Shown here: positions 5,786-6,368 of the stretch, piece after piece | Layout of the letters: every line of letters starts with the position of its first letter | Numbering within the stretch: the stretch's first letter is position 1 | Virus record (IMG/VR): IMGVR_UViG_3300027312_000135 | Length of the DNA stretch: 12,244 nt | Source: a virus | Lineage: Duplodnaviria > Heunggongvirae > Uroviricota > Caudoviricetes | Reading direction: 5' to 3' (one strand) | The notes under the pieces: generated by a model | Told to the model about the DNA's origin: nothing | Database searches by the model: none | Seen by the model: the letters and a program-made list of their open reading frames with translations, nothing else | Position numbers and translations under genes: made by a program

Positions 5786-6093
5786 TGGCTTTCGATCCAG
5801 TCAGTACGCTGATGAACGAGATGAAGCTGATAGAGGTTATTAGCTTCTGCTCGCCTTCCACAGTTACAGCAGATAGCGCCATGAGGGGTATTTTTTTCTG
5901 CGTCTTTGAAGGTGAACTGAAATCAGCGTGCTCCACATTCAGGGCACCGAAACTTAACACGGCCCATGAGGAGACTCCGTTTTGGTTTTGCTTAGTGATA
6001 GGTAACCCTAACATTCCTTCCAGCTTTAGCCAGCAAAAAATGAACTTACTGCCGCATAAGCGGCTTTTTTTACGCCCAAATTCAGGAGAGTAA
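5785..6093 (+). CDS. Hypothetical Cys/Phe-rich ORF (102 aa), uncertain
   Basis: ATG overlaps the N-like stop (TAATG), but the composition is odd, no SD is evident, and its 3' end contains an intrinsic terminator. Confidence 0.3.
   Translation: MAFDPVSTLMNEMKLIEVISFCSPSTVTADSAMRGIFFCVFEGELKSACSTFRAPKLNTAHEETPFWFCLVIGNPNIPSSFSQQKMNLLPHKRLFLRPNSGE
6051..6071 (+). terminator. Intrinsic terminator (GCCGC-ATAA-GCGGC followed by T7)
   Basis: Perfect 5 bp GC stem, 4 nt loop, then TTTTTTT at 6065..6071. The downstream linker ACGCCCAAATT is repeated at 10943..10953. Confidence 0.5.
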
Positions 6094-6095
6094 CG

Positions 6096-6368
6096 ATGTG
6101 CAATTGCATTGAAGAGGCTGGCCAGAAGGTCCGGGAGCAGATGCTCAAAAGCAAACCGGATGATGCCGAAATCGACGAAAGCTGGGGAGCCAGCGGCTGG
6201 GATAATCAGGTCATGTCGCTCGGCGATGGCAAAATTCGCGTGATGCTCAATTACAAAATGGGCTGGTATCCACGCAAGAAAGACGGCAGCCGCGCTAAGA
6301 ACGCAAGCCGCAAAGAAATGGCCGTGAAGATGAGTCACTGCCCTTTCTGTGGCGTCAGCCTTGAGTGA
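6096..6368 (+). CDS. Hypothetical small zinc-binding protein (CxC ... CPFC), 90 aa
   Basis: AGGAGA SD 6 nt before the ATG at 6096. Cys pairs at both ends (MCNC... and ...HCPFCGVSLE) suggest a zinc ribbon. Confidence 0.6.
   Translation: MCNCIEEAGQKVREQMLKSKPDDAEIDESWGASGWDNQVMSLGDGKIRVMLNYKMGWYPRKKDGSRAKNASRKEMAVKMSHCPFCGVSLE

Follow-up and report, generated by a model that had tools for sequence, protein, structure and literature searches.

A putative terminator–leader cassette found twice in the early-left operon of Pantoea/Erwinia lambdoid prophages lies at mosaic junctions and may serve as a homology linker

The 12,244-nucleotide (nt) viral sequence IMGVR_UViG_3300027312_000135 of IMG/VR, analyzed here over its full length and called the window, carries two copies of a short intergenic cassette composed of a GC-rich hairpin, a run of seven thymines (T7), an 11-nt linker of the form ACGCC(C/T)AAATT, a Shine–Dalgarno (SD) sequence and an ATG. 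The repetition was first proposed from the letters alone (the sequence-only reading), and direct reading confirmed the segment and its coordinates. In copy 1, on the plus strand, the hairpin GCCGC-ataa-GCGGC (6051-6064; placed by sequence, fold and stem covariation across instances) is followed by T7 at 6065-6071 and the linker ACGCCCAAATT at 6072-6082; the SD AGGAG (6084-6088) and the ATG of the next gene at 6096 complete it (6084-6098), with the spacing seen in the 72 instances described below. Copy 2, on the same strand, consists of the hairpin GACCTGC-tccg-GCAGGTT (10920-10937, core 10922-10935; placed by sequence and fold), T7 at 10936-10942, the linker ACGCCTAAATT at 10943-10953 and the SD GGAA at 10956-10959, with possible start codons at ATG 10960 and ATG 10966 (10956-10968). 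Homologues of the TraR-like protein encoded next start (MNFPDP) at the second of these, 10966.

The 18-mer TTTTTTTACGCCYAAATT was found at exactly two sites in the window, 6065 and 10936, each with a GC hairpin before it and an SD and ATG after it, and allowing up to two mismatches still returned only those two. None of 200 dinucleotide-preserving shuffles matched it. The 11-mer linker taken by itself, with two mismatches allowed, was not enriched in the window (4 found, 7 expected), which places the signal in the exact linker within its terminator context. A covariance model of the cassette scored 61.8 and 60.6 bits at the two sites and 11.9 bits at the next best, indicating exactly two copies; no further copy, intact or diverged, turned up in the window with this model or in the mismatch search. 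The linker is missing from the other plus-strand terminators (4923-4953, 6459-6484 and 11984-12009). The likeness of the two copies is more than a shared T-run, since it extends 11 bases past the T-run and includes the SD. Their hairpins differ, and copies within one genome share just 12–18 base pairs (bp).

Both copies combine a GC stem of 5–7 bp, a tetraloop and U7, the structure of an intrinsic terminator with a U-tract of at least 6; the folding energies are −9.6 kcal/mol (z −3.3) for copy 1 and −11.7 kcal/mol (z −4.8) for copy 2. Beyond the hairpins, extended folds were no better than shuffles (z +0.1 and −0.8); a more extensive RNA structure, and masking of the SD by the linker, were rejected on this ground. 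No Rfam 15 covariance model matched at either copy, even at E up to 1, and no transfer RNA or attachment site was found. A promoter reading of TTTACG... was rejected after inspection of the instances, which have no conserved −10 element at the right spacing. A small RNA (sRNA) with a conserved 3′ end, of the type known from prophages of enterohaemorrhagic Escherichia coli (PMC4104026), was likewise set aside: conservation does not stop at the U-tract, and what lies upstream of the cassette is coding DNA with no relationship to it.

The window is a lambdoid prophage of the Pantoea/Erwinia type and not from E. coli. When the whole window was compared by megablast with phage and E. coli collections, the matches were all weak and patchy (O, cII, ParB), and the closest named relatives among the fetched loci were Pantoea prophages, with 85–90% identity in recE/recT. 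The left half encodes P-like, O, ParB and cII genes on the minus strand. The early-left (pL) operon runs on the plus strand from about 4166, opening with a cI-like repressor gene and its terminator, the operator region and a nutL-like site (5286-5332, plus strand, upstream of the N gene), the last made up of boxA CGCTCTTTAACA (5286-5297) and a boxB-like hairpin (5313-5332). An identical boxA stands at the nutR position after cro (3954-3943, minus strand; nutR-like site 3954-3900), and the boxB-like hairpins that follow the two boxA copies are similar (CUCCCGCCCUUGUGGGAG and UCCCCGCCCGUGUGGGGA); taken by itself, the number of boxA sites does not exceed chance (64 of 200 shuffles). Next comes the gene of an N-like antitermination protein (5516-5785, plus strand; 89 amino acids (aa) by gene callers), assigned by a weak match to phrog_271, ‘anti-termination protein N-like’ (E 2.8e-6), at the position occupied by the annotated N of Erwinia phage 49. 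A nut site and an N homologue are found upstream on the cassette strand, the context of a terminator in an N-antiterminated operon.

Copy 1 follows the N-like gene and precedes a Cys-rich gene of 90 aa (6096-6368, plus strand; CxC...CxxC; phrog_7033, E 1e-26), one of several alternative post-cassette genes: relatives carry MQQPIEI.. or MSKETGG.. genes in its place, and a protein look-up matched two short metagenome contigs only. Further along the plus strand lie a strong terminator (6459-6484; 11-bp stem, −21.3 kcal/mol, T7), whose leader is unrelated to the cassette linker, and, directly after it, a cIII homologue of 45 aa (6524-6661; PF02061 in the precomputed annotation of contig L117). A recE-like exonuclease gene (7078-7899) and recT (7896-8798; single-strand annealing protein, PF03837, E 3.7e-30) follow, the recE/recT phrogs being phrog_561 and phrog_412; recT is the last conserved gene before an AT-rich island. 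Past the island, copy 2 stands before a TraR/DksA-like C4 zinc-finger gene resembling lambda orf73 (10966-11178, plus strand; phrog_54, ‘DksA-like zinc-finger protein’, E 7e-11), for which an exact-protein look-up returned no record. This gene, at the position of gp33 of Erwinia phage 49, opens a conserved block that leads through two more genes and a terminator to an AlpA-type excisionase gene (xis). The cultured Erwinia phage vB_EhrS_49 (NC_048197) is arranged alike, the order being N, Erf, accessory genes, cassette, DksA-like gene, methylase, xis and int, and its cassette carries no annotation.

To define the cassette in other genomes, viral contigs were scanned with the 18-mer (79 loci) and named genomes with the 18-mer plus GGA (26 loci). 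A full cassette was taken as hairpin, T7, linker, 1–3 nt, GGA(G), 5–9 nt and a start codon, about 40 bases in all; 72 remained after de-duplication. Named-genome matches with a hairpin came mostly from Pantoea and Erwinia, plus one from Lonsdalea and an Acinetobacter look-alike, and matches in other taxa mostly have no hairpin and look like chance. Matches with Pasteurellaceae-type or other hairpins and no SD (e.g., L029 and L058) were set aside, about 14 such being expected by chance on our estimate. A literature search for the motif in both orientations returned only unrelated primer and small interfering RNA matches, and this cassette of Erwiniaceae prophages, a terminator with an ACGCCYAAATT leader at two positions per operon, seems not to have been described before.

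The hairpin varies in sequence and keeps its pairing. Arm pairs include GCCGC/GCGGC, CCTGC/GCAGG, CCACC/GGTGG, CCGCC/GGCGG and GTCGC/GCGGC; in the cassette alignment, whose instances had been pre-filtered for a hairpin, 100% of cells pair, three of the five pairs show change on both sides, and the covariation score was reached by none of 500 shuffles. The linker was also present at homologous junctions of related prophages when these were collected in other ways, a search that the sequence-only reading had proposed and whose failure would have told against it. Loci found via the N protein alone carried a full cassette in 11 of 22 cases, 240–1100 nt after N, and those found via the TraR-like protein alone carried the linker with at most one change in 4 of 25. 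In 1.25 Mb of loci not selected for the linker, T-runs were followed by an exact linker in 6 cases and by one with at most one mismatch in 13, against 0–0.3 for scrambled controls.

The hairpin and T-run CCTGCTCCGGCAGGTTTTTT (compare 10922-10941 of the window) was in addition observed in 94 distinct contexts in phage contigs (loci L145-L233). It is followed by the exact linker in 20 of them and by variants in about 15; in many others a −35-like TTGAC(A/T) follows directly. As many of these contexts have no linker, this hairpin itself appears to be a unit widely reused outside the cassette.

The flanks of the cassette are mosaic. Around the 72 cassettes, the upstream sequences fall into 54 unrelated clusters and the downstream sequences into 22 (gene families), and the TraR downstream cluster alone is combined with 26 different upstream flank clusters. 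The early observation that each copy precedes a small zinc-ribbon or Cys-rich gene is accurate for the window; the link is incidental, with at least 22 unrelated gene families following the cassette in relatives. At the post-N position, all four combinations of the upstream flanks U1 and U2 with the downstream flanks D1 (the MQQPIEI.. gene) and D4 (the Cys-rich gene of the window) exist (L022, L117, L009 and L064), and the same holds at the TraR position for U4 and U6 with D0 and D2 (L010, L060, L026 and L031). Pairwise comparison within these four-gamete sets showed identity from the first hairpin base to just past GGAG. Megablast segments between the window and its relatives end or start at 6051, 6060, 6090, 10921 and 10934. 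These breakpoints at the cassette edges and the four flank combinations at both positions support the proposal that the segment is a conserved module junction of phage mosaicism.

The cassette is also conserved better than its flanks where these are homologous: upstream, the window-type region shows about 75% identity to L022 and L046, and the cassette differs at one loop base. The word ‘scar’, under which it had first been considered, is too weak. For cassettes whose hairpin is the same and whose flanks are unrelated left and right, the shared contiguous identity has a median of 33 bp (range 23–48). Published minimal efficient pairing segments are 23–27 bp for Red-beta and 31–34 bp for RecA, and where homology is short and diverged, exchange is dominated by phage recombinases of the Rad52-like kind (PMC3945230). 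The prophage itself encodes RecE/RecT. What is expected of a boundary linker is found at this site: non-homologous flanks with homology breaking at the edges, reassortment of flanks, and identity long enough for pairing. A separate observation concerns L235 (2858-2920), where the Cys-rich gene is missing and the cassette is cut after T7ACGCCCA and joined to ...GTGACACCGCAATGGCCTGTT (about 6365 of the window, past the stop of the gene); from its sequence, this is read as a joint within the linker that a deletion or a replacement left behind.

Copy 2 marks the right edge of the AT-rich island (8799-10919, last stop 10903-10905), a region of variable cargo delimited by GC content and by missing homology in relatives. 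GC content is 0.33–0.43 over approximately 8800-10800 and 0.52–0.59 on both sides. Between 8800 and 10900, no nucleotide homology was found in about 260 related loci except in three that match near 10000-10199; the flanks are matched by 16–37 of these loci, and homology is back at 10909-10934. The GC shift and this resumption confirm that copy 2 is the right-hand boundary, as had been noticed at first sight; the hairpin starts 15 nt past the stop of the last open reading frame (ORF) of the island. The interval from recT to the TraR-like gene measures 0.8–3.7 kb and is different in every relative, and TraR-type cassettes have a lower mean GC content upstream than downstream (0.447 vs 0.506). 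On its right, the variable slot for accessory genes has a fixed boundary, copy 2, and the cassette remains with the downstream side when the cargo changes. L059, at one point taken for an ‘empty’ site with recT abutting the cassette, is not one, as 803 nt with small ORFs lie between.

The island contains a DUF6338 gene (9356-9943, minus strand), three tandem small ORFs, and ORFs of 59 and 220 aa on the plus strand. PADLOC gave no defence-system match on the island, and Pfam matched DUF6338 only. The three tandem ORFs (8864-9335, minus strand; 52, 47 and 47 aa) are paralogous, with about 72% nucleotide identity and a period of 158–170 nt, and each has KQVT(Q/P)P(A/V)PPPKKP as its end; the DUF6338 membrane-protein gene lies upstream of them, and a minus-strand terminator (8861-8838) comes next. 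The sole candidate for a target-site duplication around the island was a direct match of 15 of 19 bases between GGAAATGATTAAGGTTTTT at its left edge (8856-8874) and GGAAATGACTATGAATTTT at the TraR-like SD/ATG (10956-10974). It could be a remnant of the pre-insertion junction and is probably chance, and a target-site duplication was rejected on this judgement.

Copy 1 overlaps an automatically called ORF of 102 aa (5785-6093, plus strand). In relatives this frame is interrupted by stops and lacks a start codon; it is probably spurious and not a conserved gene, as the cassette beneath it also exposes. An intrinsic terminator is expected outside coding sequence and downstream of a gene; copy 2 lies after a stop, and the ORF that overlaps copy 1 is not conserved. 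On the opposite strand, between N and copy 1 and antisense to the pL operon, there is a zinc-ribbon ORF of 61 aa (5785-5967, minus strand; MGRVKFRCPECGAR.FQFTF...C..CGR...). It is intact in L046, L105 and L022; the window and the identical contigs L117 and L118 have a TGA at codon 15 (5925-5923) that interrupts it.

Several known systems resemble the cassette in part. The modular theory of Susskind and Botstein and the HK620 comparison of Clark et al. (2001) reportedly describe conserved boundary sequences at lambdoid mosaic junctions. Evidence for such sequences exists in some phage genomes only, and many module boundaries show none (PMC3233612). The likeness is close: a short conserved intergenic stretch has unrelated modules around it and is proposed as a target of homologous recombination that reassorts modules. 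The cassette differs in being a defined unit (hairpin, T7, 11-nt leader and SD), in its occurrence in Erwiniaceae at two pL positions, and in the four-gamete evidence.

In lambda, the terminator tL1 stands after N in the N-antiterminated pL operon. A predicted terminator, t2, lies between orf61 and orf73, directly upstream of orf73, in lambda and phi24B (PMC4195576), and lambda orf73, which belongs to the exo-xis region, is homologous to TraR (PMC9239242, PMC4195576). The lambda terminators thus share with the cassette both positions, after N and directly upstream of the TraR-like gene, in an operon with nut and N. Unlike the cassette, they are not followed by an ACGCCYAAATT leader and are dissimilar to each other; experiments have established N-dependent readthrough in lambda, whereas for the cassette it is predicted from sequence. 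The lambda exo-xis terminator t5, AAGCCGCCTGATGGCGGTTTTTT (PMC4195576, Table 4), equals the cassette hairpin of L078 and L089 over 23 nt, and the sequence after the T-run differs.

Morons are described, in the account of Juhala et al. (2000) given in PMC4104026, as promoter–gene–terminator insertions in lambdoid phages. Copy 2 comes 15 nt past the last ORF of an insertion that is AT-rich and phage-specific, and could similarly be the terminator of that insertion. Among the moron features examined, the island is AT-rich and unique, and promoter-like sites are no more frequent than chance. Unlike in morons, the hairpin and linker stay on the TraR side across the 26 upstream flank clusters, and this constancy across cargo clusters argues that the cassette belongs to the insertion site and not to the moron. 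Another parallel is offered by the start-associated sequences of Cluster K mycobacteriophages, which are short, conserved and asymmetric, include the ribosome-binding site and are repeated before several unrelated genes. Their length is about 13 bp, each genome has many of them, and they are not known to be linked to a terminator. The cassette is comparable as a repeated leader with a ribosome-binding site before unrelated genes, but it occurs twice per operon, each time together with a terminator hairpin.

We interpret the cassette as a conserved intercistronic terminator and leader of Pantoea/Erwinia lambdoid prophages that is read through with the help of N and that doubles as a homology linker, and we give this a probability of roughly 0.65. 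Its sequence, conservation, hairpin covariation and operon context, the breakpoints at its edges and the reassortment of its flanks are directly supported by the observations. Termination, readthrough by N and homologous exchange inside the cassette are predicted steps. The hairpin with U7 is a putative intrinsic terminator because of its structure, its covariation and the position of copy 2 just past the last stop of the island; the nutL site and the N homologue upstream suggest readthrough of the lambda type. Unmodified RNA polymerase would stop at the cassette, whether it comes from pL before N accumulates or from island promoters in the lysogen, and polymerase modified by N and nut would pass. 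The next gene, whichever it is, would be translated from the cassette's own SD after an 11-nt unstructured linker. The suggestion of a regulated terminator and translation-initiation unit is compatible with the covarying hairpin, the SD and the upstream nutL and N, and is likely, on grounds that come from the DNA sequence.

As the only sequence common to otherwise unrelated left and right flanks, the cassette would most likely act as a homology linker of about 23–48 bp. Recombination there, by an annealing protein of the RecT, Erf or Red-beta type or by RecA, could swap upstream cargo and downstream genes while leaving the transcription and translation signals intact. The divergence of the hairpins should limit deletion of the block between the two copies, because copies within one genome share so short a stretch of identity.

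A number of observations weigh against the combined interpretation. The cassette set was gathered with the exact 18-mer, which inflates the apparent conservation of the linker, and the unbiased sets are small. Among the loci found via the TraR-like protein, 12 of 25 have a diverged leader, hairpin-T6-ATTGCC..., and 9 of 25 have translational coupling and no upstream terminator, both of which indicate that the linker is dispensable for the downstream genes; shortened forms such as T7ACGCCTGGAG also exist. The stems of the putative terminators are short, at 5–7 bp, with energies of −9.6 and −11.7 kcal/mol. The interpretation also does not account for the retention of these particular 11 linker bases. 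Finally, purifying selection on the terminator and leader could by itself account for the conservation, with illegitimate joints filtered afterwards.

This last point is the main rival. It holds that the cassette is a functional terminator and leader only, maintained by purifying selection, and that the joints arose by random illegitimate recombination and survived where the signals stayed intact, with no role in recombination. Illegitimate joining followed by selection is the Hendrix-type model. Hairpin covariation is what selection on structure produces, junctions at gene boundaries are expected from selection alone, and some joints fall inside the cassette, as in L235, where the linker is fused after ACGCCCA; shortened and variant leaders fit as well. 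Selection of this kind is nevertheless hard to reconcile with four flank combinations that recur around an intact cassette at two separate positions, and with breakpoints that coincide with its edges in many independent pairs. It also leaves aside that the shared identity of 23–48 bp reaches the published minimum for pairing of the Red-beta type, and selection for a terminator by itself would not fix 11 given bases after the T-run. We regard this explanation as serious, though on balance unlikely.

A second possibility is that the 11-nt linker, alone or together with the SD, acts as a specific recognition site, bound by a protein, targeted by an sRNA, processed by an RNase or modulating termination or antitermination, that co-regulates the downstream genes. 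Its conservation next to a hairpin whose sequence varies freely, its predicted single-stranded state and its presence at two positions of one operon in several phages (the window, L016 and L025) would suit such a role. Each linker position, however, varies in some relative, and whole parts can be deleted; the window holds no complementary sequence or extra copy, conserved structure past the hairpin and Rfam matches are lacking, and the downstream genes are functionally unrelated. A specific site is accordingly improbable, clearly more so than selection alone. Chance or generic terminator features, for which one could cite the roughly 14 occurrences of a terminator with the 11-mer expected in the viral collection on our estimate and the matches in unrelated taxa mostly without hairpin or SD, are refuted by the shuffles of the 18-mer, the concentration of the 72 full cassettes in prophages of one bacterial family and the scrambled-linker controls, and have next to no probability.

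A stronger form of the terminator, leader and linker interpretation is more speculative. The cassette might be a selected plug-in adaptor, kept uniform so that annealing recombinases can swap cargo in an antiterminated operon, with hairpins that differ between the positions to keep the copies below the pairing threshold and spare the recET block; or the linker might be the binding site of an unknown common regulator. We consider this doubtful.

Since the modular theory was proposed, there has been a long dispute over whether phage mosaicism arises via short conserved linkers or by random illegitimate joining and selection. The cassette offers a compact and well-populated case for the linker model, with 72 independent contexts, two positions, complete reassortment, exact edge breakpoints and a length equal to the pairing minimum of annealing proteins. 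As a conserved linker at phage mosaic boundaries, it is a clear case and not an unprecedented one. Its presence in the cultured Erwinia phage 49, whose host can be grown, makes the question directly testable. In the exo-xis section of Pantoea/Erwinia prophages, the cassette flags the right-hand edge of a variable slot for accessory genes.

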